Below, in pieces: positions 3,870 through 63,451 of a stretch of 64,000 nt of DNA. The DNA comes from Candidatus Omnitrophota bacterium (GTDB lineage: Bacteria; Omnitrophota; Gorgyraeia; B26-G9). Under the pieces are notes generated by a model. That model worked only from the letters and a program-made list of their open reading frames with translations. It had not been told where the DNA came from and made no database searches. A program made the translations under genes and the position numbers. How positions within the stretch are numbered: position 1 is the stretch's first letter; every line of letters starts with the position of its first letter. The stretch covers positions 17,721 to 81,720 of the forward strand of contig JAHITY010000114.1 of the NCBI GenBank assembly GCA_018817165.1. The letters are read 5' to 3'.

Positions 3870-3891
3870 TTAGAATGCAGTGTATAGCGAA

Positions 3892-4181: not shown

Positions 4182-4312
4182 GTTGCATCAGCAGGAAAAT
4201 TTGTGTCAGCGTAAAATTTATCGATCATCTTGAGTATTGAGTAGAGCGTTTAGAGTTTGGAAATAGTAATTAGAAATTAGTAATTTATTTTCTGTTTTAT
4301 AAAGGGATTTTT

Positions 4313-5458
4313 ATGAAGATACTGATGATTCATCCTCATGATCTTTTTTCAAGAAAAGAACCTTGGACAATTAGAATTAAGAAAATTGCCCAAGAGTTTA
4401 AGAAAAAAGGGCATGAAATTAAGATAATTTATTTCCCTTTGGAATATCATACTCATCGGGATGGGTTTTCGATTGATGGTATTGAATATATACCTTTAAG
4501 CCGCAAACTGGGTATGGCCAATTATTATAAAAATATTCGCTATGTTTGTGCACAGGGAAAATGGGCGGATATTATCCATTTTCAGAAGTGCTTTTTTTAT
4601 GCGGCTTTGCCGGCTTTGCTTGCCGGGTTTGTTAATAATAAACCGGTTCATTATGACTGGGATGACTGGGAAATAAAGATATTTTATTACGAGGCTAAAC
4701 AGCCGCGGCTAGTCGGCGGTTTTCTTTGGGCCTTAGAAAGATATATTCCTAACCTTTGCGATACAGTATCGGTTTCCAGTCTGCGCTTAAAGCAGGAGTG
4801 CATTAGCTATGGCTTGGATCCTAATAAGATCGCCATGGCTCCGGTTGGTGCAGATTTGAACTTATTTCATCCGGATATTTCGCCAATTCGAATTAGGGAA
4901 AAATATAATCTGCAGGGGCCAATCATTAGCTATTTGGGACAATTGCATGGCGGGCAATATGCCGAACAGTTTATTCGCGCGGCAAAGATAATCACAAATC
5001 AATTAAAAGGAATAACTTTTTTTATTATCGGTGGCGGTTATCGCTTAGATGAATTAAAAACCTTAGCACGGGATATGGATTTGGATAAGCAGATTATATT
5101 TACTGGAGCGATCAGTCATCAGGAAACTCCTTTATATTTAGCGGCAACTGATATCGCAGTGGCTTGTTTTGAAAATAATCAGATTACTCAATGTAAAAGT
5201 CCGCTTAAAATCGCCGAGTATTTGGCCAGTGGTAAGCCGATTGTTGCCAGCGATGTAGGAGAAGTCAAGCGAATGCTCGGCGGGGCGGGAATTCTCACTT
5301 TGCCTGGAGATTCCGAAGCTTTAGCCCAAGGAATAAAAAAACTTCTAGATGATGAGCCTTTGCGTAAAAGATTAGCAATAAAAGCCCGTCAAAGAGCAGA
5401 GGATTTATATAATTGGCAAACAACCGCAGATAATTTATTAAGGATTTATGCTGTTTAA
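4313..5458 (+). CDS. Glycosyltransferase family 1 (GT4-like, GT-B fold).
   Basis: C-terminal GT1 signature region (IAEYLASGKPIVASDVGEV...); size ~380 aa. Confidence 0.75.
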   Translation: MKILMIHPHDLFSRKEPWTIRIKKIAQEFKKKGHEIKIIYFPLEYHTHRDGFSIDGIEYIPLSRKLGMANYYKNIRYVCAQGKWADIIHFQKCFFYAALPALLAGFVNNKPVHYDWDDWEIKIFYYEAKQPRLVGGFLWALERYIPNLCDTVSVSSLRLKQECISYGLDPNKIAMAPVGADLNLFHPDISPIRIREKYNLQGPIISYLGQLHGGQYAEQFIRAAKIITNQLKGITFFIIGGGYRLDELKTLARDMDLDKQIIFTGAISHQETPLYLAATDIAVACFENNQITQCKSPLKIAEYLASGKPIVASDVGEVKRMLGGAGILTLPGDSEALAQGIKKLLDDEPLRKRLAIKARQRAEDLYNWQTTADNLLRIYAV

Positions 5459-5484
5459 CAGTAAAGAAATCAGGATGATTTAAT

Positions 5485-6435
5485 ATGGGAAAAATTTTTC
5501 AGTTGTCGATCATAATTCCGGTTTTCAATGAACAAGGCAATCTTAAGATTTTAAATCAGCAGATTAATCAAGTTATGAATAATCTTGAAGTTACTTATGA
5601 AGTAATTTTTATTGATGATGGCAGCACTGATAATAGTGTGCGGGAACTTGAGGAAATCGCAAAAGATGATGCGCATGTGCGCATAATAACTTTGCTGAGA
5701 AATTATGGACAAACCCAGGCTATTGCTGCTGGAGTGGATCATTCTTTGGCTGAACTGATTATAACCATGGATGCTGATTTGCAGAATGATCCTAAAGATA
5801 TTCCCAAATTGCTCGATAAAATCAAACAGGGATATGACGTCGTAAGTGGCTGGCGGATTAAGCGCAAAGATAATTTCTGGCAGAAAAAACTGCCTTCATT
5901 TCTGGCTAATTTTATCATTGCTAGATTAACCAAAGTTAAATTACATGATTTGGGATGCACATTAAAAGCATATAGAATTAGTGTTTTAAAAGACATTGAA
6001 TTTCAGGGAGAAATCCATCGGTTTTTACCTTTATGCGCTGCTATTCAGGGAGCGAAAATCGCAGAAGTTCCGGTTATACACCATAAAAGAAAACATGGAC
6101 ATTCAAAATACGGGTTTTCCCGTTTTTTTAAAGTTATACTTGATATGCTTACAATATTATTTACCTGGAAATTTATGATTAAGCCGATTCAGCTATTTGG
6201 CGGCATCGGAATTGCTTCTGTATTACTCTCAGTAATGATCGGATTATTTATTGTTTTGCGTAAAGTCTTATGGGCAGGTCAATGGGTCAGTCCGCTTATA
6301 TTTATATTTGCGATTCTTTTTGTAGTCGGTGTGCAGTTTATTTTAATTGGCATTTTGGCCGAGATTATTATCAGACTTTATTATGGTATGAGGGATCAGA
6401 CACGCTATAAGATTAGAAAAAAAAACAAGGAATAA
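5485..6435 (+). CDS. GT2 polyprenol-phosphate sugar synthase (GtrB/ArnC/Dpm1-like) with two C-terminal TM helices.
   Basis: LSIIIPVFNEQ...IFIDDGSTD GT2 motifs, DAD motif (TMDADLQND), C-terminal hydrophobic helices typical of GtrB-type enzymes. Confidence 0.75.
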   Translation: MGKIFQLSIIIPVFNEQGNLKILNQQINQVMNNLEVTYEVIFIDDGSTDNSVRELEEIAKDDAHVRIITLLRNYGQTQAIAAGVDHSLAELIITMDADLQNDPKDIPKLLDKIKQGYDVVSGWRIKRKDNFWQKKLPSFLANFIIARLTKVKLHDLGCTLKAYRISVLKDIEFQGEIHRFLPLCAAIQGAKIAEVPVIHHKRKHGHSKYGFSRFFKVILDMLTILFTWKFMIKPIQLFGGIGIASVLLSVMIGLFIVLRKVLWAGQWVSPLIFIFAILFVVGVQFILIGILAEIIIRLYYGMRDQTRYKIRKKNKE

Positions 6436-10517: not shown

Positions 10518-11579
10518 ATGCTGCGCAGTATGTGTTCACAATTAAATAATTTAATTTCTTTTCGTAAACTTTTTTCCTTTAGACAAGTTATGTCTGGGGT
10601 GAGATATTTTCCGGCTACAGTAAATTTTTTGATAACTAATAAGTGTAATCTAAATTGTAGTATTTGCTCTGCTCATGGAATGCTTGATAATAGCCAGCAG
10701 CTCTCGGCTAAGGAGATTGTGGGATTTATTAAAAAAATTTCCAGATATAAACCAGCTATTTTTTTTGGGGGAGGAGAGCCTTTTATTCGGAAAGATATTT
10801 TTGAAATTCTTGCTGCAACTAAAAAAAATGGTTTAAAGTACGGCATTGTTACAAATGGAACAATGCTTGATGAGCATAATATAAAAAGATTATTTGATTT
10901 TGCGCCTGAAATAATAATTTTCTCAGTACATGGCGATGAGATAAGTCATGATGCTAAAACAGGGAAAAAGGGGGCATTTGTAGCTTTATATAAAGCAATT
11001 AAACTTGCAGTTAAACATAAAAAGAAAACAGATATACTGCTTAATGCAGTTATAACTCAAGATAATTATTTAGATCTGGAAAAAATAGTAGTGCTGGGAA
11101 AAGAATTGGGTGTAAATAGGGTAAGGTTTGAGAATCTTATTTTTCTTTCTGAGCTGGAATATGCGCAACATTTAGCAGGGTGTGTAGGTGTTTTAAAAGA
11201 AAAACAAGCTGAAATGACTACTTATATTAAAGATATCAATTGTCCAAAAATTGGTCCTGATATGCAAAAAGAGGTTTTACGTTTAAAACAAAAGTATGGT
11301 AGTTTTGTGATATTTAAGCCTTATATGACTGATCATGAACGATCAAGATGGTTTGAACAGGGGTTTAAGTTTAATCGAAAGTGTATGTTTGTTAGGCATT
11401 CAGTATTTATAAGACCAAATGGAGATATTATTCCTTGTCAGTTTTTTTCTAATTATAAATTAGGCAATATTAAAACAGATGATCTTTCTCGTGTTTGGCA
11501 GGAGGAGAAGCGCAAAAAATTCACTAAAATCTTAAACAAGGAAATTTTACCTGGATGCATGAGGTGTTGTAAATTATGA
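10518..11579 (+). CDS. Radical SAM/SPASM-domain protein.
   Basis: TNKCNLNCSICSAHG (Cx3Cx2C), GGGEPFIRKD, C-terminal Cys-rich SPASM/twitch region (CPKIG...CMFVRH...IPCQFF...LPGCMRCC). Confidence 0.75.
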   Translation: MLRSMCSQLNNLISFRKLFSFRQVMSGVRYFPATVNFLITNKCNLNCSICSAHGMLDNSQQLSAKEIVGFIKKISRYKPAIFFGGGEPFIRKDIFEILAATKKNGLKYGIVTNGTMLDEHNIKRLFDFAPEIIIFSVHGDEISHDAKTGKKGAFVALYKAIKLAVKHKKKTDILLNAVITQDNYLDLEKIVVLGKELGVNRVRFENLIFLSELEYAQHLAGCVGVLKEKQAEMTTYIKDINCPKIGPDMQKEVLRLKQKYGSFVIFKPYMTDHERSRWFEQGFKFNRKCMFVRHSVFIRPNGDIIPCQFFSNYKLGNIKTDDLSRVWQEEKRKKFTKILNKEILPGCMRCCKL

Positions 11580-17678: not shown

Positions 17679-17739
17679 GGCTCAAGGATGAAAAGACGAA
17701 AAAGTAGCGGACACAAGGTTGCAAGCTAAAAGCGATAAA

Positions 17740-17886
17740 CTATAAAGGGCAGGAATAATTATTTAGGCGGGTTTGAAGCCTGATTTTGGTAGGACTGGCA
17801 AAATCAGAGATTCATCCTCGGAGTCCCGCACGATGCGGGACGAGAATGAGCCAAAATGATTGATTCCTGACAGCCTTCGATAAAGT
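17740..17886 (+). ncRNA. Copy B of the conserved ~148-bp structured element (see 4034..4181).
   Basis: Near-identical to 4034..4181; located 129 bp upstream of the GT1 gene at 18015. Confidence 0.45.
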
Positions 17887-24746: not shown

Positions 24747-25742
24747 ATGAGATTAAAAGAAAAAATATATATTGGATTAATGATTGCCAAGGCAAAACTG
24801 CTGAAACAGAGTATCCCGGTTATTGTCGGGTGGGCACTGACCTATCAATGCAATAAGCAATGTAAATATTGTCTTTTGCCAATCAAGAAAACTGTTGAAC
24901 TCAATACTGCAGAAGTGAAGTTATTAATTGATAATTTCAAAAGACTCGGCACGAAAATGCTGATTTTTACTGGCGGAGAACCGTTTTTACGGAAAGATAT
25001 AATTGAAATAATTAATTATGCTAAACAAAAAAGAATGATTGTTTATGTAAATTCAAACGGATCTAGAATTAGAGATTTTATCGGACAATTAGGTTTAGTC
25101 GACTGCTTGAATATTAGTTTGGAAGGCAATAAACAGACGCATAATGCGATCCGCGGGACAGGTAGTTTTGAGCAGGTAATGGAAAGCGCTGAACTTGCTA
25201 AGCAACATAAAATAAAGTTAAGATTTACAACTACGCTCAATAAGCTTAATCTTGAAAATATAGATTATATCTTAGATTCGGGTGCAAATCTGCAAGCTAA
25301 AGTTAAATTTCAAATACTTACTGATTATTGTCTGGGATCAGTTGAAAAGAATCCGCTTTTGCCGGAAAATCATAAATTAATTAAAGTTATAAAACAACTT
25401 TGCGAATACAAAAAAAAGGGTAAGTATAAAAATATAATCGCCAATCCATTGCCGGCTTTAAAATATTTTCGTTCCTTACCAAAATTACCTCTGATGGCTT
25501 GTGCTTCTGGGAAAATTACTTTTCGAGTTACTCCTGATGGTTTTTTAATTACTTGCGGAGAATCCGGAATAGCGGCAAATCATTTTAGGATTGCCCTGAA
25601 AAATAAAACTTATGAGCAAGTAAAACAAATTTTAGAAAAAATAAAATTTTCGAAACAAAGATGTAGTTGTGGCTGCGCAGACAGAGTCGAAGCATCAATG
25701 CTGTGGAATTTAAACCCTGGGGCTGTTTTGAATAGGCTATAA
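24747..25742 (+). CDS. Radical SAM/SPASM-domain protein (~330 aa). Paralog of 28347..29351 and 46114..47106.
   Basis: LTYQCNKQCKYC, FTGGEPFLRKD, C-terminal CASGKITFRVTPDG...CGES...CSCGC. Confidence 0.75.
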   Translation: MRLKEKIYIGLMIAKAKLLKQSIPVIVGWALTYQCNKQCKYCLLPIKKTVELNTAEVKLLIDNFKRLGTKMLIFTGGEPFLRKDIIEIINYAKQKRMIVYVNSNGSRIRDFIGQLGLVDCLNISLEGNKQTHNAIRGTGSFEQVMESAELAKQHKIKLRFTTTLNKLNLENIDYILDSGANLQAKVKFQILTDYCLGSVEKNPLLPENHKLIKVIKQLCEYKKKGKYKNIIANPLPALKYFRSLPKLPLMACASGKITFRVTPDGFLITCGESGIAANHFRIALKNKTYEQVKQILEKIKFSKQRCSCGCADRVEASMLWNLNPGAVLNRL

Positions 25743-28346: not shown

Positions 28347-29351
28347 ATGCTGAATCCTATTGTGAAAAGTACCCAAAAGGCAGACATTTTCTTTAATATT
28401 TTAGGTGCTAGAATTTTTAATAATTTCAGGCCAATTTTTGTAAATTGGCCATTAACTTATAAATGCAACTACAGATGTCCTTATTGTAAAATTTACGAAA
28501 ATCAAAGGTCCGAGCTTTCCTGTGATGATATAAAGTTGAGAATAGCTAAATTAGTAAAGTTGGGACTAAAGTGGATTATTTTTACGGGAGGAGAGCCTTT
28601 TCTTAGAAATGATTTGCCTGAGATAATTGCTGCCGCTAAAAAACATAATTTGTTTGTTTGTGTTAATTCTAACGGATCTTTTTCTCCGGAGATGCTTGGA
28701 AAATGTGGCAATATAGATCTGTTGAACCTAAGCCTGGATGGATTGGAAGAAATTCACGATAAGATACGCGGAAGAGGTGCTTTTAATCATATGCTGTCTG
28801 CTCTTGAGTCCGCGAAATTATTAAAAATCAAGGTGAAAATCACAACAACTATTCATAGAATTAATATGAATAAAATAGAAAGCATTTTGTCTTTCTGTAT
28901 AAAAAACAATATTATGCTTTCTTTTCAAATGCTTAACAGGAATTGTCTGGGGAGCAAGGAGGTAAATAATCTTTCTCTGTCAAATGCTGAATATAAACAG
29001 GCAATCAAAAATATTATTCTACTTAAAAAGTCTAAGAAATATTCTAAAGCTATATCACATTCACTAAGCTCTTTAAAATTTTTAGCCCAACGCGCTGATT
29101 TAAGTAAATTGCAATGTGCTTCTGGAAAAATTGCTTTTAGAGTTACTCCTGAGGGCAAGATGTATGCTTGTAATCATCACTCCTTTTTAAATGATAAAGA
29201 AAGTAATGGAGTAATTGATCTAAAAGAAGATTTAAAATCCATTAGACTTAAAATTAAACAATTAAGCAAATTGGATTTATCGAATTGTCATTGCTCCTGC
29301 ATGAATAGAATAAGACTTAATTTGTTATGGAATTATGGATTTGGATTTTAA
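28347..29351 (+). CDS. Radical SAM/SPASM-domain protein. Paralog of 24747 and 46114.
   Basis: LTYKCNYRCPYC, FTGGEPFLRND, CASGKIAFRVTPEG...CNHH...CHCSC. Confidence 0.75.
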   Translation: MLNPIVKSTQKADIFFNILGARIFNNFRPIFVNWPLTYKCNYRCPYCKIYENQRSELSCDDIKLRIAKLVKLGLKWIIFTGGEPFLRNDLPEIIAAAKKHNLFVCVNSNGSFSPEMLGKCGNIDLLNLSLDGLEEIHDKIRGRGAFNHMLSALESAKLLKIKVKITTTIHRINMNKIESILSFCIKNNIMLSFQMLNRNCLGSKEVNNLSLSNAEYKQAIKNIILLKKSKKYSKAISHSLSSLKFLAQRADLSKLQCASGKIAFRVTPEGKMYACNHHSFLNDKESNGVIDLKEDLKSIRLKIKQLSKLDLSNCHCSCMNRIRLNLLWNYGFGF

Positions 29352-50668: not shown

Positions 50669-52342
50669 ATGAGTTACCTGATAATTTTCATGTTAGCGAT
50701 AAGAGCTTTTATCTGTGAGAAAACTTGGCCAACTGCGGGAATTTTTTTTGATATTTGTTTTTGTTTGTGTTTTTTACTCTATATTCTAATTGATCCTAAG
50801 CTGAGAGTAAGCAGGAAATACTTTATTTATCCGCTCATTTACTCTGGCCTTTTGCTCCTGAATACATTTTTTTCAGTAAATTCCTATAATAGTCAAAATG
50901 AAATAGTTAAATTATGGGTATACATGCTCATATTTTATTTTGTTTATTGGCAGAATCAAAAAAACCGCAGACTGCTTATAGGTTCAATATGCGCCATAAG
51001 TCTGTTTATAAGCTTGCGGGCAATTTATCAGTATGCTTTCGGACTAGAATATATTAAGCAGCATTATGCATATGCCCAGATTGTTGAGCAAGGGTTTTAT
51101 GCTTTAGAAATGCTCAAACAAAAAAGAGTTGTTTCCTGGTTTTTGTCCCCAAATCTGCTTGCTGGATATTTGGTGATGATCGCCCCTTTAGCGGGAGCGT
51201 ATGGGTTTGAGAGTTTTAAACAACAAAAAATAAACCAGAGTATATTTTTCACGCTTATTTTTATTTGCTCAGCCGTGGGTTTATATTTTACGGGTTCTTG
51301 GGGTGCTTATCTGGGGTTCGCGATAGCGATGCTATTTATTATATTAAATCCTTTGGGCAATAAAACTGCTTTAATTGAAAGTCGAAAAAAGAATAATAAG
51401 TTGATCCTCGGCGGAGTTTTTTTTCTGCTTATTTTAGCCGCTTTATTCAGCCAAAGAGCCAAATATTTTATTGACCTAGCAAATCCTCAGAACTCTTTGG
51501 TGCAGCGTTTGTATTATTCGCAGGCTGCCGTTAAGATGATAAAGGAAAATCCTTTGACCGGTATTGGCTTGGGTAATTTTGGACTTGTTTATCCTCAATT
51601 CAAGCAAATAAACGCCAATGAAACAATTTACGCGCATAATATTTTTCTGCAATTATGGGCGGAGCTGGGAACGATAATTTTTATTTGTTTTATATTTTTT
51701 GCGATCTATCTATTATCCCGTTTTTTAAAAAAATTAAGACAACAGCGGGAAGTTGGTTTGATCGCGGCCAGCCTTGCTTTTTTGGTTTATAATTTTTTTG
51801 ACTATAGTCTAATGATCACTCAAAGCGGTTATGTTTTTTTTATTGTCATTGCTTGTTTATTTAAACCGCAGGAGGATTCTTACCCAGAAAAAAATAATCG
51901 ATTTACCCCAGATAATTTTTTAAATAAAACAAGTTTTATTGTAATCTGCGGAGTAATGATTATGTTTTTAACTGCGGAGTATTGCTCTCTAAGATCATTA
52001 GATAAAGCTGATCAATTTTTAAAACAAGGGCAAACAGACAAAGCTTTGGTCCTGGCAAACACAGCTTTGAAATTTAGAGTAAATAATGACCAGATATATT
52101 ATTTTATCGCAGTATGTTATCAGCAAAAAGCAGGTAAATTATTTTCTCCTACAGCAGCTGCTTATTATTGCCAAGCAATACGCTTAAATCCAAAATATGC
52201 TTTTTATTATGCCTATCTTGGGGATTATTATTTTTCGCATAAACTTTATCCGCAGGCAAAAAAAGCTTATCAGCAGGCAATAAAACATTATCCGCATAAT
52301 AAAAAATTCAAAGAAATCTATAGCCAGATACAAGGTCAATAG
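50669..52342 (+). CDS. O-antigen ligase/polymerase (Wzy_C/WaaL-like) polytopic membrane protein fused to C-terminal TPR repeats.
   Basis: IYAHNIFLQLWAELGTIIF matches the Wzy_C HN..L....E.G motif within a multi-TM region; C-terminal AYYCQAIRLNPKYAFYYAYLGDYYFSHKLYPQAKKAYQQAIKHYP is TPR-like. Confidence 0.6.
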   Translation: MSYLIIFMLAIRAFICEKTWPTAGIFFDICFCLCFLLYILIDPKLRVSRKYFIYPLIYSGLLLLNTFFSVNSYNSQNEIVKLWVYMLIFYFVYWQNQKNRRLLIGSICAISLFISLRAIYQYAFGLEYIKQHYAYAQIVEQGFYALEMLKQKRVVSWFLSPNLLAGYLVMIAPLAGAYGFESFKQQKINQSIFFTLIFICSAVGLYFTGSWGAYLGFAIAMLFIILNPLGNKTALIESRKKNNKLILGGVFFLLILAALFSQRAKYFIDLANPQNSLVQRLYYSQAAVKMIKENPLTGIGLGNFGLVYPQFKQINANETIYAHNIFLQLWAELGTIIFICFIFFAIYLLSRFLKKLRQQREVGLIAASLAFLVYNFFDYSLMITQSGYVFFIVIACLFKPQEDSYPEKNNRFTPDNFLNKTSFIVICGVMIMFLTAEYCSLRSLDKADQFLKQGQTDKALVLANTALKFRVNNDQIYYFIAVCYQQKAGKLFSPTAAAYYCQAIRLNPKYAFYYAYLGDYYFSHKLYPQAKKAYQQAIKHYPHNKKFKEIYSQIQGQ

Positions 52343-52451
52343 TAGGGGCCGATGGCTGTCGGCCCGTGACAATACCGCGCGAAATTAAAATATAAAATAA
52401 AATTTGTATAATTTTTAAACTATAACGGGCGGCCAGCCAGCCGCCCCTACT
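52340..52451. repeat. Hairpin element with terminal inverted repeats TAGTAGGGG...CCCCTACT (copy 2). Its 3' hairpin plus T-run probably also acts as an intrinsic terminator.
   Basis: 5' hairpin ggccga-tggctg-tcggcc; 3' hairpin gggcggc-cagcca-gccgccc followed by cTACTTTTATTTTCTGCTTTTTTT; the TAG stop of the upstream gene lies inside the TIR. Confidence 0.55.
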
Positions 52452-52468
52452 TTTATTTTCTGCTTTTT
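52420..52468 (+). terminator. Rho-independent terminator candidate downstream of the glycan island.
   Basis: GC-rich 7-bp stem (gggcggc/gccgccc) with a 6-nt loop, followed by a T-rich tract. Confidence 0.5.
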
Positions 52469-52707
52469 TTAATCGCAATACGCAATACTCAATACGCAAT
52501 ACGTTTTTTGCTTTTACCCTTTTCCTAATCGCTAACCGTTATCCGCTGCTTTTTACCCCATACACTATCTTGTAGTCATGCACGACTTAACCCCCTGTAA
52601 ATAGTATAATTAAATATTTTTTAAAAAAGTTATGTTTTTTAGTTGACAGACCGTGAAAAATAAAGTATATTTAGTTATGTGGAGAAAAGTGGGGGGAAGT
52701 GGGGTCT

Positions 52708-53148
52708 ATGTTCTACGGTGAATTTGAACATTCATTAGACAAAAAAAACAGAGTTATTATTCCTGCTAAGTTTCGAGAGGCAGTTAGAAATAGCTTTGGC
52801 GAGAAATTTTTTATTACTCGCGGTCTTGATGGATGTTTGTTTGTTTTTACCGAGGATGAATGGAAACGCCAGGAGCAGAAATTTAAGGCTTTATCATTTA
52901 CCAAAGCTGAAGCAAGAAGATTTAATCGTTTATTCTTTTCCGGAGCTAGTGAAATTACCTGCGATACCCAAGGAAGGGTTTTGATTCCGCAATATCTCAA
53001 AGAATTTGCCCAGATTGACAAGGATGTTTTAATTATTGGTGTTGCTAACAGAATAGAAATCTGGAGCAAACACAGCTGGAAGGAATTTTATGATAACACT
53101 AGAGAGACCTTTGAAGAGACTGCAGAAAAACTCATGGGTCTGGAGTGA
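52708..53148 (+). CDS. mraZ: Transcriptional regulator MraZ.
   Basis: MFYGEFEHSLDKKNRVIIPAKFRE and the second DxxxR-type repeat (CDTQGRVLIPQYL); first gene of the dcw cluster. Confidence 0.9.
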   Translation: MFYGEFEHSLDKKNRVIIPAKFREAVRNSFGEKFFITRGLDGCLFVFTEDEWKRQEQKFKALSFTKAEARRFNRLFFSGASEITCDTQGRVLIPQYLKEFAQIDKDVLIIGVANRIEIWSKHSWKEFYDNTRETFEETAEKLMGLE

Positions 53149-54524: not shown

Positions 54525-56246
54525 GTGCACAAGCGGCAGGAAAAGCTTCGTTTTGCAGTAGTATTTTTCGCTTATCTTTTTATTCTGCTGATTATTTTTT
54601 TTCGATTGCTTTATATTCAGGTATTGAATTATGATGATTATATTAAGCTTGCTGATTCTCAGCATAATCTCACTTTAAAACTTTCTCCGCAAAGAGGCTC
54701 GATCCTTGACCGCAATTTAAAAACATTTGCTATGAGCTTAAAAGTATCTTCTGTTTATGCCGTTCCTCGGGTAATAAAGAATAAATCAGAAGTTGCCGCG
54801 AAACTTTCCAAAATCTTAGATATCGATTACAATAATCTATTAGAAAAATTAAATCGTGATAAAGCTTTTGTCTGGGTTAAACGCCGAATCGATGATTCTT
54901 TGGCTGAGCGCTTAACACAGGAACCTATTCCCGGGGTTTCGCTGCTTACTGAAAATAAAAGATATTATCCGAATAATGGCTTGGCAGCTCATGTTGTTGG
55001 TTTTGCCGGCATTGATGAACAGGGCTTGTCCGGCGTGGAATTGATTTATGACAAGTATTTAAAAGGGCAGTTCGGAACAAGGTCCATGCTTCGCGATGCG
55101 AAGCAGCGGATGATGCCGGCTTTTGAATTTGAATATATTCCGGAGATAAATGGTTACAATATTGTTTTAACGATTGATCAGGTTATCCAGCATATTGCCG
55201 AACAGGCACTCGACGCGGGGTTTGCCAAAAGTAAAGCAGTCGGCGCATCGGTTATTGTCATGAATCCGGAAAATGGGGAAATTTACGCTTTGGTAAATCG
55301 TCCGGGTTATGATCTGAATGCTTTTGGCAATGCTGATCCTGAGGCCAAGCGTAATCGGGCGGTTAGTGATTATTTTGAGCCAGGCTCGACTTTTAAAATA
55401 ATTACCGCCAGCGCGGCGATAGAAGAAAAAGTTGTGGCTTTGGATGAGGTATTTTTTTGTGAAAACGGCGAGTATAAAATATCCCGCCATATTTTGCATG
55501 ATCATAAACCGCATGGAAATCTCAGTTTTGTGGAAGTTATTGAAAAATCCAGCAATATCGGTACAGTAAAAGTCGCCCAGAAATTAGGCGAAAAATTATT
55601 ATATGAATATATTAAAAGATTTGGTTTTGGCGAAAAAACAAATATTGATTCACCGGGAGAAGTCGCTGGTTTTTTTCGGCCGCTTAAACAATGGTCGAAA
55701 CTTTCTATTTCCGCCTTGCCGATTGGTCATGAAATTGGGGTAACCGTAATTCAGATGGCCCGGGCAATGGCGGTTATTGCTAATGGCGGTTATCAGGTCA
55801 ATCCGCATTTAGTTGATAAAATCATTGATAAGAATAATGAAATTATAAAAGACATTGAGTTTGAACCGCAACCGCGGATTATCAGTGAGCAGACTGCAGC
55901 AACAATGCGCGGTATTTTGAAGGGCGTTGTCGATAATGGCACGGGTAAAAGCGCGCAAGTTAAAGGATACTCCACCGCGGGAAAAACCGGTACTGCTCAA
56001 AAAGTAATCCCCGGAGAGGGATATTCGCATAGTAAATTTATTGCTTCATTTATCGGGTTTGCTCCGGTTGATAAACCAAAAGTAGTGATTGCGGTTGTTT
56101 TTGATGAGCCCAGACCGTTTTATTATGGCGGTACTGTCTGTGCTCCGATATTTAAGAACATTGCGGAAAAAGTATTAAAATATTTAGATGTGCCCATGGA
56201 AGAAGGCTTAGAAAATAGAAGTAGTGTTGTAACTGATAAAGACTAG
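54525..56246 (+). CDS. ftsI: Peptidoglycan D,D-transpeptidase FtsI (class B PBP).
   Basis: N-terminal TM anchor; SxxK (GSTFK), SxN (KSSN) and KTG (KTGTAQK) motifs; GTG start. Confidence 0.9.
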   Translation: MHKRQEKLRFAVVFFAYLFILLIIFFRLLYIQVLNYDDYIKLADSQHNLTLKLSPQRGSILDRNLKTFAMSLKVSSVYAVPRVIKNKSEVAAKLSKILDIDYNNLLEKLNRDKAFVWVKRRIDDSLAERLTQEPIPGVSLLTENKRYYPNNGLAAHVVGFAGIDEQGLSGVELIYDKYLKGQFGTRSMLRDAKQRMMPAFEFEYIPEINGYNIVLTIDQVIQHIAEQALDAGFAKSKAVGASVIVMNPENGEIYALVNRPGYDLNAFGNADPEAKRNRAVSDYFEPGSTFKIITASAAIEEKVVALDEVFFCENGEYKISRHILHDHKPHGNLSFVEVIEKSSNIGTVKVAQKLGEKLLYEYIKRFGFGEKTNIDSPGEVAGFFRPLKQWSKLSISALPIGHEIGVTVIQMARAMAVIANGGYQVNPHLVDKIIDKNNEIIKDIEFEPQPRIISEQTAATMRGILKGVVDNGTGKSAQVKGYSTAGKTGTAQKVIPGEGYSHSKFIASFIGFAPVDKPKVVIAVVFDEPRPFYYGGTVCAPIFKNIAEKVLKYLDVPMEEGLENRSSVVTDKD

Positions 56247-56286
56247 CTGAAAACTGAATACAGAGACCGGAAAAACAGCGGGCAAA

Positions 56287-56407
56287 GGTTTAACGGTAAC
56301 GAAGCCCGTATCGGTAACGTAGAACGGTTAGGGTGAAAATAATAAATTTAAAGACGACAGCCCTTACCGTAAGACGAAACGGGCATCGTAACCCTGACCG
56401 TAACCTT
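56287..56407 (+). repeat. Intergenic ~120-bp repeat D1 (direct repeat partner at 57995..58118).
   Basis: Shared blocks agcgggYaaaggt...cccgtatcggtaaYgt...cgaaacgggcatcgtaacc...taacctt in both copies. Confidence 0.6.
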
Positions 56408-56444
56408 GTGACATTGTGTCATTGTAATATAATGGAGGAGTATT

Positions 56445-57923
56445 GTGCAGGCATTTCAAGCTTTAAAAATACTAGGCAAAGATCCGGCTGATTATCAGTT
56501 TGCTGATTTTAGATTAAGAGGATTAAGTCTTGATTCAAGAACTGTGGCACCGGATTACTGTTTTGTTGCCATAAAAGGGGCTAAGAGTGATGGAACCAGC
56601 TTTATTCAGGCAGCGCTCGATAAAGGCGCGCGGCTTATTGTTCATGAAAAAAACACTAAACCGTTTAATTTCAGCTCAGCGGATTCCGCGATATTTGTCG
56701 AAGTGGACAATTCCAGAATAAGCGCGGGAAAACTGGCTGTGGAATATTTCGGAAACCCCGGGGATAAATTAAATTCAATCGGAATCACCGGGACTAATGG
56801 CAAGACCACAATATCTTATTTAATTGAGCATATTTTAAGAACTAATGGAATTAACTCTGGGATAATCGGGACAATTCAGTATAAAATATCCGATCATATC
56901 GTTCCGGCTGTAAATACAACTCCCGACGCGATGAAGATTCAGCATTTACTGCATCATATGGTTGAGCATAATTTAACGCATAATATTATGGAAGTTTCCT
57001 CGCATGCCCTGGATCAACACAGGGTAGAGGGAATAAAATTTAAAACCGCGATTTTTACTAATCTGACGCATGATCATTTAGATTATCATAAATCAAAAGA
57101 AAAGTATTTTGCGGCCAAAGCAACTTTATTTTCCGGTTTAGCAAACGATTCAACTGCGATTATAAACAGTGATGATCCTTATGCGGAAAAATTAAAGCAG
57201 CTGACAAACGCTAAGGTGCTCAGCTATGCGATTAATCACGAAAATGCGACGCTTAGAGCAAAAAATATAGCTTTAGGTATTGATAAGACAAACTTTGTTC
57301 TGGTTTGGGATAAGGCTGAATATAATATCCAGACAAACTTGATCGGCAGATATAATGTATATAATGTCCTGGCAGCAATTGCCGCGGCCATAATCGAGGG
57401 AATACCAATTGATAAAATAAGAGAATCAGTGAAAACTGTTGAGCAGGTCAGAGGCAGACTTGAGCGGATTAGGCATAATCAGGGGTTTGAGGTATTTATT
57501 GATTATGCGCATACTGATGATGCATTACAAAATGTATTAAGCACATTAGCCGAACTGAAGCCTAATCAGCTGATTACGGTTTTTGGCTGCGGTGGCGATC
57601 GCGATAAAAAAAAGCGTAGTTTAATGGGTAATATCGCAAGTAAGCTTTCTGATTTTGTTATTCTTACTAATGATAATCCCCGCGGCGAAGATCCTCAGGA
57701 GATAATCGAGCAAATTAAAAGCGGATTTGTTGGAGAGTTTAAAGCATATGAAATCATTCCGCAGCGGGATAAAGCAATTCAAAGAGCTTGCGGTTTGGCT
57801 GGGAAAAGAGATTTTGTGCTGATTGCCGGCAAGGGCCATGAAACATATCAGGTGTTTAAGGATAAAACAATTAAGTTTGATGATAAGCAAATTGCTCTGA
57901 AGTTCTTGACAGAAAATGGTTAA
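56445..57923 (+). CDS. murE: UDP-N-acetylmuramoyl-L-alanyl-D-glutamate--2,6-diaminopimelate ligase MurE.
   Basis: GITGTNGKTT P-loop; DNPRGEDP (the DNPR motif indicates meso-DAP specificity); GTG start with GGAGG Shine-Dalgarno. Confidence 0.9.
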   Translation: MQAFQALKILGKDPADYQFADFRLRGLSLDSRTVAPDYCFVAIKGAKSDGTSFIQAALDKGARLIVHEKNTKPFNFSSADSAIFVEVDNSRISAGKLAVEYFGNPGDKLNSIGITGTNGKTTISYLIEHILRTNGINSGIIGTIQYKISDHIVPAVNTTPDAMKIQHLLHHMVEHNLTHNIMEVSSHALDQHRVEGIKFKTAIFTNLTHDHLDYHKSKEKYFAAKATLFSGLANDSTAIINSDDPYAEKLKQLTNAKVLSYAINHENATLRAKNIALGIDKTNFVLVWDKAEYNIQTNLIGRYNVYNVLAAIAAAIIEGIPIDKIRESVKTVEQVRGRLERIRHNQGFEVFIDYAHTDDALQNVLSTLAELKPNQLITVFGCGGDRDKKKRSLMGNIASKLSDFVILTNDNPRGEDPQEIIEQIKSGFVGEFKAYEIIPQRDKAIQRACGLAGKRDFVLIAGKGHETYQVFKDKTIKFDDKQIALKFLTENG

Positions 57924-57994
57924 TAGTTTATGTTTTCAGTATTGCGTCGCGTGTCGTGCGTATTGAGTATAGAAAAAACAGAAGACAGAAAAAG

Positions 57995-58118
57995 AGCGGG
58001 TAAAGGTAAATGGTAATGAACCCCGTATCGGTAATGTTTAACGGTTACGGTTAAAAATTTTAAGCCGATAGACTTTACCCCCAAACGAAACGGGCATCGT
58101 AACCTTAACCATAACCTT
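57995..58118 (+). repeat. Intergenic repeat D2 (direct repeat of D1), itself flanked by ~35-bp imperfect inverted repeats (57935..57970 and 58125..58160).
   Basis: See D1. The flanking motifs agtattgcgtcgcgtgtcgtgcgtattgagtat and caatacgcacgacgtgatactcaatact are partial reverse complements of each other. Confidence 0.55.
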
Positions 58119-58171
58119 TTAGAGTAGCAATACGCACGACGTGATACTCAATACTAAATAGGGATTAATTA

Positions 58172-59563
58172 ATGTTTACAATTCAAGAAATAATCGATAT
58201 TTGCAAAGGGATTCTGATAAACCAGAATGCCGATAATAGTGTGATTGTTCAGGGTGTATCAATTGATTCTCGGACGATAAAAACTAATGATCTGTTTATC
58301 GCGGTTCGCGGGGATAATTTTGATGGACATGATTATCTTGTTTGTGCAATAGAAAAAGGCGCGGCCGCAGTTATTGTTGAAAGTCTCTGGGCTGAAAAAA
58401 ATGAGGATATTTTAAGCAAACTAAACAGTCCGATCATTGCCGTGGAAAACACAATTGCGGCTTTAGCTTATCTGGCCAAGCAGCATCGAAAAAAGTTTTC
58501 TCTTCCAGTTATTGCGGTAACTGGATCGAATGGAAAAACAACGACAAAAGAAATGATTGCCTGTGTCTTAGAGGCGAAATATAAGGTATTAAAAAGTAAA
58601 GCTTCATTTAATAATCATATTGGTGTGCCGCTTACTTTGCTTGAACTTGATTCAAGTCATCAGGTTGCGGTGATTGAAATCGGGATGAATCATAAAGGTG
58701 AAATTAGAGGCCTGGCCGCGATTGCTTGTCCGGATATCGCAGTGATTACTAATGCGGCAAACGCGCATCTTGAGTTTTTTAACAGCATTTCTGATATAAT
58801 AGAGGCAAAATGCGAATTGCTTGAGTCGCTGTCAACCAAGAGCTTCGCGATTATAAATGCGGATTGTAAGCCGTTGTATGCCAGAGCTCATGATTTTTGC
58901 ATTGACCTTAGGGGGTTTGGGATAAAAAGTGTGTGTGCTTATCAAGGATCAAATATTGTTACTCATTCCGATGGAATCGCGTTTACGGTTAATGGAAAAT
59001 ATACTTTCCGGCTGAATGTTTTAGGCGAACATAATGTTTATAATGCCTTAGCGGCAATCGCGATTGCTCAGAATTTTGAGATTGATTACAATCAGATTAG
59101 AGAACAATTGGCGAAATTTAAACCAGTATCCCTGCGCATGCAGATAATCAAGTTTCCGGGCGCGGATATTATTGCCGATTGTTATAATGCCAATCCTGAT
59201 TCTACAATGGCGGCAATAAATACTTTGCGAGCAATCCAATCAAAAGCCAAAAAAATATTTGTTTTTGGCGATATGCTGGAATTAGGTAAATTTAGCAATC
59301 AAGCGCATCAGCAAATTGGAAAACTAGTCGCGGAAAGTTCAATATCTAAACTTATTACTGTTGGCGAAAAGTCTCAATTAGCAGCTGTGGGCGCGACAGA
59401 GCAGGGGATGAATAAACAAGATGTTTATCAGTGCCAGAACGTTGAACAGGCAGCCGCTGTTTTGAAAAAAATAATAAGTCAGGATGATGTTATCTTGCTC
59501 AAAGGATCAAGAGGCATGCATCTTGAAAAAATAATTGATTTTTTAAACAATAAGAAGAAATAA
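58172..59563 (+). CDS. murF: UDP-N-acetylmuramoyl-tripeptide--D-alanyl-D-alanine ligase MurF.
   Basis: VTGSNGKTTTKEM P-loop; Mur ligase architecture; gene order. Confidence 0.9.
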   Translation: MFTIQEIIDICKGILINQNADNSVIVQGVSIDSRTIKTNDLFIAVRGDNFDGHDYLVCAIEKGAAAVIVESLWAEKNEDILSKLNSPIIAVENTIAALAYLAKQHRKKFSLPVIAVTGSNGKTTTKEMIACVLEAKYKVLKSKASFNNHIGVPLTLLELDSSHQVAVIEIGMNHKGEIRGLAAIACPDIAVITNAANAHLEFFNSISDIIEAKCELLESLSTKSFAIINADCKPLYARAHDFCIDLRGFGIKSVCAYQGSNIVTHSDGIAFTVNGKYTFRLNVLGEHNVYNALAAIAIAQNFEIDYNQIREQLAKFKPVSLRMQIIKFPGADIIADCYNANPDSTMAAINTLRAIQSKAKKIFVFGDMLELGKFSNQAHQQIGKLVAESSISKLITVGEKSQLAAVGATEQGMNKQDVYQCQNVEQAAAVLKKIISQDDVILLKGSRGMHLEKIIDFLNNKKK

Positions 59564-60665: not shown

Positions 60666-60834
60666 ACTTATGGCTGATAGTCAATAGTCAATGGAAGGCA
60701 AAAATTCTCTTTTAGCGGCGCTTTCGAACGTAATTTTGACAGGGATGTCAAAATAGAGAGAACGCGCGGCTGAGACTGCACGATGCAGGCTCAGGCTTAG
60801 CGAAAAGATGTGTTTTTGCCTTGGATAAAGGCAA

Positions 60835-62226: not shown

Positions 62227-63317
62227 ACTTAAAACAATTAAGAATAAATTTAGCAGCAATAACCCTGATTCTCGTGTGTGTGGGAATTGTGATGATTTAT
62301 AGTGCTAGCGCGATTTATGCCCATGAGAATCTGGGTGATAGTGCCTATTTTCTCAAGCGTCATTTACTCTATGTTTTAATTGGATTCCTTGGTTGTTTGC
62401 TAGTTATGAGTATTGATTACCGCTTTTTTAAAAAAGCCGCAAAACCTTTGATCATAATTTCCTTTGGCTTGCTGCTATTGGTCCTTATTCCTGGTATTGG
62501 GAAAGAGGTGGGAGGTGCGCGCCGCTGGTTTCGTTTTTTTGGCATAAGCTTTCAACCTTCAGAGTTTGCTAAATTTGCGATGATTGTTTACACTGCCGAA
62601 TTTTTAAGCCGCAAGAAATCAATGGTTACTTCTTTTTTTAAGGGTTTTCTTCCTGTTTTCATGGTTCTGGGCGCGATGTGCCTATTAGTCATTGTCCAAC
62701 CTGATTTAGGAACTGTTTTAGCAATGAGCAGCATTTGTTTTATTATGTTTTTTGTTGGCGGCGTACGTTTGGCGCATATAATTTCTTTTGTGCTTTTATC
62801 TTTGCCAGGTTTGTATTTTTTGGTATTTAGTGTGCCGTATCGACGGAGAAGAATTCTTGCTTTTATTGATCCTTGGGCTGATCCGCAAGGCAATGGATTT
62901 CAAATAATTCAATCATTGGTTGCTTTAGGTTCAGGAGGGGTTAATGGCGTGGGCTTAGGTCAAGGTAAGCAAAAACTATTATATTTGCCGGCAGCCTATA
63001 CGGACTTTATTTTTTCAATTATCGGCGAGGAGCTGGGGTTTATTGGCACTGCTTCCATTGTTATTTTATTTGCTTTGTTTTTAATCCAAGCCACAAAAAT
63101 ATGCTTAAAAGCCAGTGATTCATTTGGTCAGTATTTATCTTTTGGCCTTATTTCCTGTCTGGTTATTGAAGCAATTGTTAATATGGGAGTAGTTACCAGT
63201 CTTTTACCAACCAAGGGATTGCCGTTTCCTTTTATCAGCTATGGAGGCACATCCTTGGTTTTTAATATGGTTTATGTTGGCATAATCTTGAATGTCGGCA
63301 GGGTAAGGACTAAGTAG
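62223..63317 (+). CDS. ftsW: SEDS-family peptidoglycan glycosyltransferase FtsW.
   Basis: 10-TM SEDS pattern; GGARRWFRFFGISFQPSEFAKFA; GTG start overlapping the murD stop. Confidence 0.85.
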   Translation: MNLKQLRINLAAITLILVCVGIVMIYSASAIYAHENLGDSAYFLKRHLLYVLIGFLGCLLVMSIDYRFFKKAAKPLIIISFGLLLLVLIPGIGKEVGGARRWFRFFGISFQPSEFAKFAMIVYTAEFLSRKKSMVTSFFKGFLPVFMVLGAMCLLVIVQPDLGTVLAMSSICFIMFFVGGVRLAHIISFVLLSLPGLYFLVFSVPYRRRRILAFIDPWADPQGNGFQIIQSLVALGSGGVNGVGLGQGKQKLLYLPAAYTDFIFSIIGEELGFIGTASIVILFALFLIQATKICLKASDSFGQYLSFGLISCLVIEAIVNMGVVTSLLPTKGLPFPFISYGGTSLVFNMVYVGIILNVGRVRTK

Positions 63318-63451
63318 GGGCGGCTGGCTGGCCGCCCGGTATATTACGTTGAATTGAAATAATGTAATATGAATGATTGGTATGTCAATATATTGATTAA
63401 ATTTTATTTTTATATTATGATTAACGGGCCGATGGCCATCGGCCCCTACTA
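63312..63451. repeat. Hairpin element with terminal inverted repeats (copy 3), in inverted orientation relative to 52340..52451.
   Basis: 5' hairpin gggcggc-tggctg-gccgccc is the reverse complement of the 3' hairpin of copy 2. 3' hairpin gggccga-tggcca-tcggccc then CCCCTACTA. The ftsW TAG stop lies inside the left TIR. Confidence 0.55.

Follow-up and report, generated by a model that had tools for sequence, protein, structure and literature searches.

The closest known kinds of sequence to the element described here are ERIC, REP and MITEs. ERIC (enterobacterial repetitive intergenic consensus, also called IRU) is an imperfect palindrome of ~127 bp that lies in intergenic, apparently transcribed regions of many unrelated operons, is conserved beyond neutral expectation and is variable between orthologous sites. 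REP/BIME sequences are intercistronic palindromes within operons that form mosaics with short motifs, and roles in mRNA stabilization or attenuation have been proposed for them. MITEs of the Correia/NEMIS type are hairpin-forming, insertion-polymorphic and cut by RNase III when co-transcribed. Two further systems are comparable. The RNase III sites of the phage T7 early region are related internal-loop hairpins, one between successive cistrons and all in sense orientation. Integron attC sites (e.g., Vibrio VCRs) are imperfect palindromes of ~120 nt that recur between genes in a single orientation; some of their unpaired bases are conserved, and their apical part is variable.

We analyzed a window of 64 kb (the whole stretch of DNA under study) from a Candidatus Omnitrophota bacterium, in which murE lies between two copies of such an element within the dcw cluster (Table 1). 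An earlier reading, made from the letters of the window without database searches (the sequence-only reading), had reported gaps of 198 nt between ftsI and murE and of 248 nt between murE and murF, and both figures agree with ours. The direct repeats that it described on both sides of murE are real: each spacer holds one ~130-nt copy (c1 and c2), and the two are ~80% identical. A repeat search matched 56285-56339 with 58002-58056 (80%) and 56344-56407 with 58055-58118 (81%), the two segments being offset by a single 6-nt indel located in the apical loop. The first copy ends ~30 nt ahead of the GTG start codon of murE and the second ~48 nt ahead of the ATG start codon of murF. Both contain the 20-mer ACGAAACGGGCATCGTAACC, which occurs exactly twice in the 64 kb (0.01 expected by chance). 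No third copy was found in the window with the covariance model (CM) run with filters off, and c1 and c2 are the sole copies in ~81 kb sampled from the source genome.

Table 1. Coordinates of the ftsI-murE-murF region, of the two copies of the element and of associated repeats in the 64-kb window.
Feature	Position	Strand	Description
Heptamer tandem repeat upstream of mraZ	52474..52503	+	(CGCAATA) x 4.3
ftsI end	56246		
A/G-rich tract preceding c1	56249..56281	+	GAAAACTGAATACAGAGACCGGAAAAACAGCGG; read from sequence; kept in L001
c1, ftsI-murE spacer	56282..56415	+	nhmmer boundaries; CM match 118 bits, E = 1e-30, 56271-56420
c1 core, 5' strand	56299..56319	+	ACGA-A-GCCCGT-A-TCG-GTAACG; (near-)invariant columns in family alignments
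c1 core, 3' strand	56374..56393	+	ACGA-A-ACGGGC-A-TCGT-AACC; exact 20-mer also in c2
murE	56445-57923	+	bracketed by c1 and c2; NCBIfam NF001126, E = 1.9e-174
Left outer arm of c2	57935..57965	+	heptamer-like units GTATTGC, GTATTGA; outer stem in whole-spacer fold
(CAGARAA)-like tract preceding c2	57970-57993		resembles tract preceding c1
c2, murE-murF spacer	57994..58124	+	nhmmer boundaries; CM match 108.7 bits, 57989-58131
c2 core, 5' strand	58016..58036	+	ATGA-A-CCCCGT-A-TCG-GTAATG
c2 core, 3' strand	58085..58104	+	ACGAAACGGGCATCGTAACC
Right outer arm of c2	58128..58158	+	CAATACGCACGACGTGATACTCAATACTAAA
murF start	58172		

Compact, overlapping dcw genes are usually read as reflecting a need for tight co-expression. 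The compactness that the sequence-only reading had taken as the norm holds in more distant relatives, where the murE-murF gap is 4 nt (L091) or 7 nt (L092). Here, the essential murE is parted from both neighbors by a ~130-nt structured element under strong selection. Bracketing of a Mur ligase gene in the dcw cluster occurs only in the window and in one other lineage (L001, with its metagenome counterpart L026/L067). The comparison with relatives that the sequence-only reading had suggested gave no wider conservation: five other Omnitrophota dcw clusters are without the element. The dcw junctions of L002 and L089-L092 do not have it, nor do the dcw clusters of relatives with MurE 67-75% identical.

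According to the predicted folds, each copy is a long imperfect hairpin, with arms of ~6-nt units around a near-invariant core. The predicted folding energies are -44.7 kcal/mol for c1 (z = -3.0) and -35.2 kcal/mol for c2 (z = -2.0). In c1, the 3' core strand pairs with 56299-56316 and leaves A·A mismatches; in the family alignment, A·A mismatches are kept at three fixed positions. Compared with L001, the 5' core of c2 shows a single U·G wobble and a single C·C mismatch. Pairing, for which the sequence-only reading had proposed a structure and covariation check, holds across the family: 89% of the alignment cells pair, compared with 17-43% when the 3' partners are slid. The covariation score is 0.084 (0.064 +/- 0.004 in shuffles, of which 0 of 500 reach the real score) and double changes occur at 14 pairs against 8.2 expected; the alignment giving the best of these figures had been fitted to the covariance model. 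Overall, covariation is modest, and the loops and mismatches are as conserved as the stems. We defined the helices by hand because RNAalifold on the MAFFT alignment gave back only the invariant core. The apical region tolerates insertions: in one case a second copy is nested there, in another a heptamer insert of 110 nt, and in a third an additional hairpin.

For 68 of 91 copies (p = 8e-8), RNA of the + strand is predicted to fold better than RNA of the complementary strand, and it uses more G·U pairs (211 against 144). The difference in the minimum free energy (MFE) comparison is only 2.35 kcal/mol. This strand signal is confined to the MFE comparison, because a column count of the variable helices finds G·U (74) and A·C (65) near balance. 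The unpaired positions are A-rich, a usual trait of structured RNA.

In order to judge how the murE-flanking copies have evolved, we compared the window with L001. MurE is 83% identical between the two and the four-fold sites of murE are only 57% identical, yet c1 is 98.5% identical to its L001 ortholog (2 differences in ~125-130 positions) and c2 differs from its own at 2 of ~125 positions. Within each genome, c1 and c2 are ~80% identical. Because the two copies are 20% apart in both genomes while the orthologs are ~98.5% identical, recent insertion and gene conversion are both excluded. A second pair of loci, L039 and L061, has proteins that are 58-69% identical and synonymous sites that are saturated; their elements occupy the same gene junctions, and all copies are 73-87% identical to one another. 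Judged from these alignments, the murE-flanking copies are under strong purifying selection. Conservation is far above the expectation for a neutral REP, and the element is very probably functionally constrained rather than junk.

The two copies almost certainly belong to a dispersed family that is not specific to the dcw cluster. A 22-base core pattern retrieved 85 metagenome stretches (about 84 distinct sequences), and CM and nhmmer searches located ~118 places in metagenome loci totaling 561 kb, with 17 full copies among the matches made without seed-pattern selection. Part of the core's invariance among the 85 pattern matches comes from ascertainment; copies outside that selection keep the core as well. 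The genes that adjoin the element span 223 Pfam families, which is the lack of dcw specificity that the sequence-only reading had said would make the locus less interesting though still real. In Nitrospirota, the element separates genes of multiheme-cytochrome operons, and a named Nitrospirota metagenome-assembled genome (MAG) carries two copies (81 and 68 bits). One neighboring gene points to carriage in Desulfobacterota, and we keep this assignment conditional because 68 kb of named Deltaproteobacteria or Desulfobacterales contigs contained no copy. The family is present in at least two, probably three, phyla (Omnitrophota and Nitrospirota, probably also Desulfobacterota) and, in uncultured anaerobes of distant phyla, parts the genes of operons that are unrelated to one another. 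Thus, of the suggestion that this might be a REP element specific to one lineage, the repeated element stands and the restriction to the lineage falls, since the element crosses phyla.

The family is apparently undescribed. No Rfam 15 family matched the window at the gathering threshold, an E-value scan of 56200-58250 returned only noise (E above 3), and 11 loci covering all subfamilies gave one tRNA as the sole match. A marine-type copy matched a microRNA model at E = 0.16. Phage, plasmid and viral collections showed no carriage of the element, and neither sequence-based nor topic-based searches of the accessible literature turned up an account of it. Other identities were rejected. A promoter-like TTGTGA-16-TATAAT at the 3' edge of c1 is not above chance and is broken in L001 by an 8-nt deletion. 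A small open reading frame is contradicted by the copies themselves: there is a 14-codon ATG frame in c2 and none in c1, the family consensus is without a start codon, and the GGTAAC units place stops in two frames. The PF05635 gene ('23S rRNA IVS protein') is not a systematic partner, as it is present in only a few Nitrospirota-type loci. The window contains no tRNA or tmRNA, and no terminator-like site was found on the + strand.

The copies are placed in a strongly non-random way. Outside a MITE-like subfamily, 68 copies are in sense and 11 in antisense orientation, nearly always between co-directional genes. All 16 window-type copies are in sense (p = 3e-5), as are 52 of the remaining non-marine copies against 11 (p = 2e-7). 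When both neighbors were called, 71 of 75 copies lie between co-directional genes, and the median spacings are 35 nt on the side of the upstream gene and 31 nt on the side of the following start codon. At L039, seven copies in the same orientation lie between successive genes in 13.7 kb. What lies between copies are large operon genes (dcw, cytochromes) that are syntenic and conserved across genomes. A subfamily of ~26 copies, probably of Desulfobacterota, is mostly antisense to its neighbors (19 vs 7). Because several called genes overrun into the element, it causes gene-calling errors.

The family also shows insertion polymorphism. L042 is filled at the site orthologous to window positions 5459-5484, an empty 26-nt spacer; the flanks of this filled-empty pair have diverged and show no readable target-site duplication. 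In one operon, copies are present in L095 and absent from L098, and the murE junctions of other relatives hold different repeat families. Copies are nested in L061. A marine subfamily consists of a ~260-nt MITE-like unit with sharp CTAG...CTAG ends, near-identical at many unrelated loci. Of 18 window-type copies, only 3 have terminal inverted repeats (~15 nt), and most copies have neither sharp CTAG boundaries nor recognizable terminal inverted repeats or target duplications. Direct repeats of the 3' half of the element lie on both sides of one PF05635 gene. No transposase family is prominent among 136 neighboring genes, and no integrase was seen among the neighbors.

Occurrence at many unrelated loci, dyad symmetry with a hairpin fold and presence/absence polymorphism place the family with REP, ERIC and MITE sequences. 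It resembles ERIC in size class, imperfect palindromy, intergenic location in many unrelated operons, conservation and variable presence. Unlike ERIC, with which it has no sequence similarity, it has arms of ~6-nt GGTAAC / GTAACC units in which A·A mismatches recur at regular intervals, occurs across phyla and not in one family group, and is often present in several copies per operon. It shares with REP/BIME the intercistronic position within operons and the mosaics with short motifs (here heptamer arrays and outer arms), but is three to four times longer than REP and does not have the GTAG-type tetranucleotide at its 5' end. The 136 neighbors included no RAYT-like gene, at a scope where one RAYT per genome is easily missed. 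Like the Correia/NEMIS-type MITEs it forms hairpins, is insertion-polymorphic and putatively co-transcribed, and has defined ends in one subfamily; conservation centers on the middle hairpin and not on the termini, and cutting of the element by RNase III is putative. The T7 sites offer a functional analogy only, for L039, L061 and ftsI-murE-murF; the element is chromosomal, dispersed over genomes and phyla, and without sequence relation to them.

We propose that c1 and c2 are ancient copies of a mobile-element-derived, MITE/ERIC-like dispersed family of ~120-135-nt intergenic hairpins, retained as intercistronic mRNA hairpins, and we rate the chances of this explanation as about even. The element would have entered both murE spacers of one Omnitrophota sublineage after its split from the relatives with ~75% MurE identity, and the copies would then have been kept almost unchanged. 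Co-transcription in a polycistronic dcw mRNA is most likely because the copies are in sense orientation and no terminator or conserved promoter adjoins them. In this mRNA, each copy would form an imperfect rod of ~55 bp. A conserved trans-acting factor may recognize its pseudo-two-fold-symmetric core, ACGA-A-GCCCGU-A-UCG paired with CGA-A-ACGGGC-A-UCGU; this factor would probably be dimeric, e.g., an RNase III-type dsRNA enzyme. The long imperfect duplex, the symmetry of the core and the sense intercistronic placement are in line with an RNase III-type signal. The element would thus serve as intercistronic 'punctuation', a processing site and/or protective hairpin, with possible effects on processing, stability or translational insulation, and would set murE stability and translation relative to those of ftsI and murF. 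The RNase III sites between the phage T7 early genes and the REP/ERIC hairpins inside operons are the parallels that we have in mind.

That the element works as RNA, within the transcript of the operon, is a narrower claim, which we hold tentatively and put at just under an even chance. The antisense-biased subfamily (19 vs 7) is not predicted by simple operon-mRNA action, and the folded DNA strand could equally be what is recognized. If the RNA-level action were true, the element would be a widespread and portable means by which operons set the expression ratios of their genes, and a clear case of mobile-element domestication. Even as a mere mobile repeat, it would be a marker of lineages and of assembly problems in Omnitrophota/Nitrospirota MAGs. 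We consider possible, although on the unlikely side, a wider interpretation in which the family is a new cross-phylum class of structured intercistronic RNA, a modular punctuation element of operons that spreads horizontally as MITEs and is repeatedly domesticated. Its invariant, symmetric core with A·A mismatches would be read by a conserved host factor (e.g., RNase III or some unknown RNA-binding dimer), and the element would tune the relative expression of neighboring cistrons, even in the essential dcw operon.

The family could instead be purely selfish MITE/REP-like DNA, non-autonomous and without a host function, its similarity across loci reflecting transposase requirements and recent spread. 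The marine CTAG...CTAG unit, the filled and empty orthologous sites, the three copies with short terminal inverted repeats, the nested copies, the L095/L098 difference and the different repeat families at the murE junctions of different relatives all fit this explanation. However, neutral immobile copies would decay, and the murE-flanking copies have not done so at a divergence that leaves 57% identity at four-fold sites. Similarly, the L039/L061 copies persist at the same junctions across ~60% protein identity with a ~80% match to the consensus. With the non-random orientation and the lack of a prominent transposase family also against it, we regard purely selfish DNA as unlikely.

We consider it quite improbable that the element is a DNA-level site, i.e., a folded strand or cruciform to which a recombinase, a Y1/HUH transposase, or a protein of replication or of the nucleoid would bind, including a recombination or insertion role like that of integron attC/VCR or REP-RAYT. 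Several observations are compatible with such a site: the seven same-orientation copies at L039, the acceptance of insertions in the apical region, the near-balance of G·U and A·C in the column counts, and the small PF05635 gene between partial copies, which recalls a cassette between attC sites. Moreover, the orientation of genes can stand in for the direction of replication, so that both the sense bias and the opposite bias of one subfamily could reflect strand-specific transactions of single-stranded DNA. Against this, the intervening genes are conserved syntenic operon genes and not variable cassettes, and neither IntI nor another integrase or transposase was seen among the neighbors. The R''/R' consensus of attC (RYYYAAC / GTTRRRY) is absent from the element ends, as judged by reading the alignment, and the mismatches are symmetric A·A pairs where attC has extrahelical bases. 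The better folding of the + strand as RNA and the A-rich unpaired positions also argue against a DNA-level site.

A conserved cis-regulatory RNA specific to the dcw cluster (a riboswitch or attenuator controlling murE and murF), one of the options in the sequence-only reading, is very improbable. In the ~81 kb sampled, both copies do flank Mur ligase genes with no other copy present, and the arrangement is kept in L001. Nevertheless, this option is refuted in practice by the distribution of the family: unrelated genes adjoin most copies, one non-dcw operon has up to seven, and the dcw clusters of relatives are without the element, including relatives with MurE 72-75% identical at these very junctions. 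In addition, the simple rod shape has no ligand-pocket-like junction. Least credible is the suggestion that homologous recombination between the direct repeats deletes or amplifies murE, for although two same-orientation copies lie 1.7 kb apart, they are only ~80% identical, their longest common exact run of 20 nt is at or below the minimal efficient substrate of RecA-dependent recombination in E. coli (about 23-27 bp), murE is essential, and the window and L001 have kept both the arrangement and the paralog-specific differences across a divergence that saturates synonymous sites.

Some copies are accompanied by further repeats. The inverted repeats that the sequence-only reading had noted around c2 are real, with 31-nt arms that are 81% complementary. 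The entire murE-murF spacer is predicted to fold into a single rod (-66.7 kcal/mol, z = -4.4), and the duplex of the c2 flanks has z = -4.7. Around c2, L001 has arms at the same place with a different sequence, and the 3' part of the right arm, GATACTCAATA, is kept upstream of murF in relatives. Complementary outer flanks are not general, being significant in only 8-11 of 90 copies. The motif upstream of mraZ that had been likened to the repeats around c2 is also real: it is a heptamer tandem repeat of the same heptamer family as the c2 outer arms and lies outside the hairpin element. The sequence CAATACGCA occurs 5 times in the window (0.48 expected). The flanking arrays of CGCAATA, CAGARAA and GTCAATA type resemble the cyanobacterial STRR, short heptamer direct repeats confined to intergenic DNA. 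They are likewise comparable to the TAACTGA repeats of Beggiatoaceae, which are intergenic heptamer tandem repeats (PMC4679880). Unlike STRR and TAACTGA repeats, the heptamer arrays here are often paired, two complementary tracts making up an outer stem, and they are companions of the hairpin element, distinct from the element proper.

The dcw cluster lies on the + strand at the right end of the window and comprises mraZ, rsmH, a small ftsL-like ORF, ftsI, murE, murF, mraY, murD and ftsW. The sequence-only reading had described murE as bracketed by direct repeats of about 120 bp, and every part of this observation was confirmed; the feature is real. The ftsI-murE and murE-murF gaps measure 198 and 248 nt, as claimed, and a repeat search found one copy of a common sequence in each (hereafter c1 and c2), matching at 80% between 56285-56339 and 58002-58056 and at 81% between 56344-56407 and 58055-58118, with the blocks offset by a 6-nt indel. 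A 20-mer common to both copies occurs twice in the window, against 0.01 occurrences expected. The inverted repeats described around the downstream copy are 31-nt arms (57935-57965 and 58128-58158) that are 81% complementary, and the motif noted 5' of mraZ consists of tandem heptamers, (CGCAATA) x 4.3, at 52474-52503. These heptamers are separate from a feature 200 nt downstream, where three GTGGG boxes with a 10-nt period (52679-52711) stand just 5' of an ATG at 52709 (MFYG...). Because the boxes directly precede this ATG and resemble the canonical MraZ operator, mraZ probably starts at 52709 rather than at the GTG at 52699 called by the ORF finder.

Genes and repeat copies around murE (window coordinates)
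Feature	Coordinates	Strand	Context
ftsI	54525-56246	+	dcw cluster
c1	56282-56415		ftsI-murE gap
murE	56445-57923	+	dcw cluster
c2	57994-58124		murE-murF gap
murF	58172-59563	+	dcw cluster

In an Omnitrophota relative with 83% MurE identity (L001), both copies recur at the ftsI-murE and murE-murF junctions. Codon positions 1 and 2 of murE are 90% identical between the two genomes, third positions 67% and four-fold sites 57% (n = 152); for c1 as for c2, 2 of ~125-130 positions differ from the ortholog. Because the orthologs are near-identical, yet c1 and c2 are ~20% different in both genomes, recent insertion and gene conversion are excluded. The comparison points to purifying selection on essentially every position of c1 and c2. 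A second pair of comparison loci (L039 and L061), with proteins 58-69% identical and four-fold sites 38-56% identical, still has copies at the same junctions. All copies in these loci, orthologous or not, share 73-87% mutual identity, and thus each is held near one family consensus, as would be expected if a common trans-acting factor reads the element.

The element is a dispersed family and is not specific to dcw. Within the window, a covariance model built from 70 copies and run with filters off matched the two dcw copies only. A 22-base pattern of the element core, searched against public metagenome contigs, gave 85 matching stretches with about 84 distinct sequences among them; one of these, represented by two loci (L031 and L059), has the appearance of a chance match within an ORF. 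In 561 kb of fetched loci, the covariance model found ~118 element places, 17 of them full copies in which the core is kept without the exact seed pattern. In L039, 13.7 kb contain 7 copies, every one on the gene strand, and in L061 13.9 kb contain 6; these dense loci are operons of multiheme-cytochrome, beta-propeller and PPIase genes rather than dcw. The 136 copy-adjacent genes represent 223 Pfam families, with no transposase and no single function prominent. No Rfam family matched the element in the window or its subfamilies, searches of viral contigs, phage records and plasmids yielded no copy, and a literature search found no paper describing it.

Both copies are predicted to fold into long imperfect hairpins (c1, -44.7 kcal/mol, z = -3.0; c2, -35.2 kcal/mol, z = -2.0), and the entire murE-murF spacer forms a single rod (-66.7 kcal/mol, z = -4.4) whose outer stem consists of the heptamer arms. 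In the family alignment, hexamer units are GGTAAC-like in the 5' arm and GTAACC-like in the 3' arm, and therefore each unit makes five Watson-Crick pairs and one A·A mismatch. The core is central, near-invariant and pseudo-two-fold symmetric (5' ACGA-A-GCCCGU-A-UCG pairing with 5' CGA-A-ACGGGC-A-UCGU), the apical helix is variable, and an AAG-N-CGA motif is conserved in the loop. Three mismatch positions are A·A in 70/70 (a figure imposed by the seed pattern), 60/70 and 44/70 sequences, and in unascertained copies the second is also U·U, A·C or a U-A pair. In a MAFFT alignment, covariation was weak (score 0.061 vs 0.050 in shuffles; 7 of 500 shuffles reached the observed score) and the pairing register was specific, with 88% of cells pairing vs 18-44% in slid controls. 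In a model-fitted alignment of 88 distinct copies, all measures exceeded all 500 shuffles and all slid controls: double changes occurred in 14 pairs vs 8.2 +/- 1.3 expected, and the score was 0.084 vs 0.064. The apical helix showed double changes in 7 of its 8 pairs. Because this alignment leans towards the model, we regard the result as moderate support.

By crude ORF calling, on which all orientation and spacing figures here rest, window-type copies were always sense relative to called neighbours (16/16, p = 3e-5), 14 with co-directional genes on both sides and 2 with only the upstream neighbour called. The other non-marine copies were 52 sense vs 11 antisense (p = 2e-7). With both neighbours called, 71 of 75 copies lay between co-directional genes, vs 82% in the background (p = 0.002). 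The upstream gene lay a median of 35 nt away and the following start codon a median of 31 nt away. Of 91 copies, 68 gave a better fold for the + strand RNA than for the complementary strand (mean -2.35 kcal/mol, p = 8e-8), and the + strand had more G·U pairs (211 vs 144) although it has fewer G+U bases; a column-based count of G·U vs A·C was balanced (74 vs 65). No terminator-like site was found on the + strand near c1 and c2, and the single promoter-like match near them is not conserved. Elsewhere, a copy (L016 1395-1608, - strand) sits immediately next to the 5' end of a co-oriented tRNA gene, and for this reason may be part of the tRNA precursor transcript.

Both the conservation of the element and its spread are unusual. 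Within Omnitrophota, an NCBI Candidatus Omnitrophota MAG includes the annotated MurE of the window, and the MAGs L001 and L002 belong to the same phylum. Nitrospirota carry the element as well: a contig of a named MAG (L095, GCA_040756135.1) has two copies (81 and 68 bits) in an operon orthologous to that of L061, and the PPIase adjoining an L061 copy shares ~70% identity with proteins from named MAGs of Nitrospirota and Thermodesulfovibrionales. In L098, a Thermodesulfovibrionales MAG, the same operon lacks copies. In L095, a poly-C / poly-G hairpin (CCCCCCTTT...AAAGGGGGG; 2125-2170 and 5010-5070) follows each of the two copies and may be a further repeat or a terminator. For the MITE-like marine subfamily, the gene adjoining one copy has its closest named proteins (~75%) in Desulfobacterales, Deltaproteobacteria and Thermodesulfobacteriota, suggesting carriage by Desulfobacterota; 68 kb of named or related contigs for this group contained no copy.

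Marine-subfamily units are ~260 nt long with sharp CTAG...CTAG ends, and near-identical copies occur at unrelated loci. In L042, ~81% identical to window 3444-6286, a copy occupies a spacer of about 220 nt; the corresponding window spacer is 26 nt. This insert has ~15-nt inverted termini common to two other copies. A full copy nested in another's apical region was seen twice in L061, and L016 has a ~110-nt heptamer insert in the element loop. Direct repeats of the element's 3' half enclose a PF05635 ('23S rRNA intervening-sequence protein') gene in L039 (7293-7863, - strand) and L027 (170-737); its last codons fall within the second 3'-half copy. L098 has a PF05635 gene at the same operon position (3133-3486) without the element. 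Six marine-type copies (L011, L020, L032, L054, L056 and L063) share an additional hairpin (CCCGACAGTATAGTCGGG + ~12 nt), which interrupts the 3' arm right after the GGGCAT core. Among relatives, dcw clusters at 67-72% MurE identity have compact junctions (27/4 and 48/7 nt), and those at 74-75% have enlarged gaps with other repeat modules and no copy of the element. Because c1 and c2 are absent in the latter and present in L001, their arrival falls between the ~75% split and the 83% split. Different repeat families accumulate at the murE junctions, which are a hotspot.

That c1 and c2 belong to a dispersed, once-mobile and functionally constrained hairpin family is well supported, and we infer its mode of action. 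The element would be a co-transcribed mRNA feature that is processed and/or shields the ends of flanking cistrons, a role comparable to those of REP / ERIC hairpins and T7 intercistronic RNase III sites. This model fits best because placement is sense and intercistronic, close to the next ribosome-binding site, because the fold is rod-like with a symmetric core, because terminator and promoter signals are absent, and because the + strand RNA is slightly favoured. It leaves unexplained the marine subfamily, in which antisense prevails (19 vs 7). A serious rival is a role at the level of the DNA strand, where the element would be a site of recombination or transposition or be bound by a replication-linked protein. 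The conservation data weaken the reading as a purely selfish element. Of the possibilities raised from sequence alone, a REP-like repeat came closest, except that the element is neither lineage- nor dcw-specific. Neither dcw-specific regulation, with copies mostly in other operons, nor recombination-driven amplification of murE is supported.

Other intergenic repeats occur in the window and in relatives' loci. Module B (~147 nt; window 4035-4181 and 17739-17885, L089 1-135, L090 4655-4790) has two window copies that are 97% identical and lie between + strand genes; it folds at -49.1 kcal/mol (z = -3.6) and has no match in Rfam. In the 74-75% relatives it occupies the murE flanks, where the window has the hairpin element. 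Module C, an insert shared by the murE-murF gaps of L002 (5530-5700) and L089 (2335-2510), begins with a possible mini-ORF (MKDDWEIFK...). Module D (window 52338-52454 and 63315-63450) consists of two GC-rich hairpins (GGGGCCGATGGCTGTCGGCCC and GGGCGGCCAGCCAGCCGCCCC) flanking an AT-rich spacer, with one copy 5' of mraZ and its reverse complement in the ftsW-murG gap. Module E (~125 nt; window 60666-60834 in the mraY-murD gap, L089 2080-2210, L067, L083, L085) is preceded by GATAGTCAATAGTCAATGG heptamers and recurs with 91-96% identity at several relatives' loci, one a murE-murF gap. Several radical-SAM/SPASM paralogues are present: the window has coding-level repeats at 10758-10834, 24960-25036 and 28575-28651, and immediately to its left (L101) are radical-SAM genes of very large size (1183 and 1401 aa). 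A 21-nt tandem repeat (x 2.7, 80% matches) at 52241-52296, in the 3' end of an O-antigen-ligase-like/TPR gene, encodes a 7-residue protein repeat.
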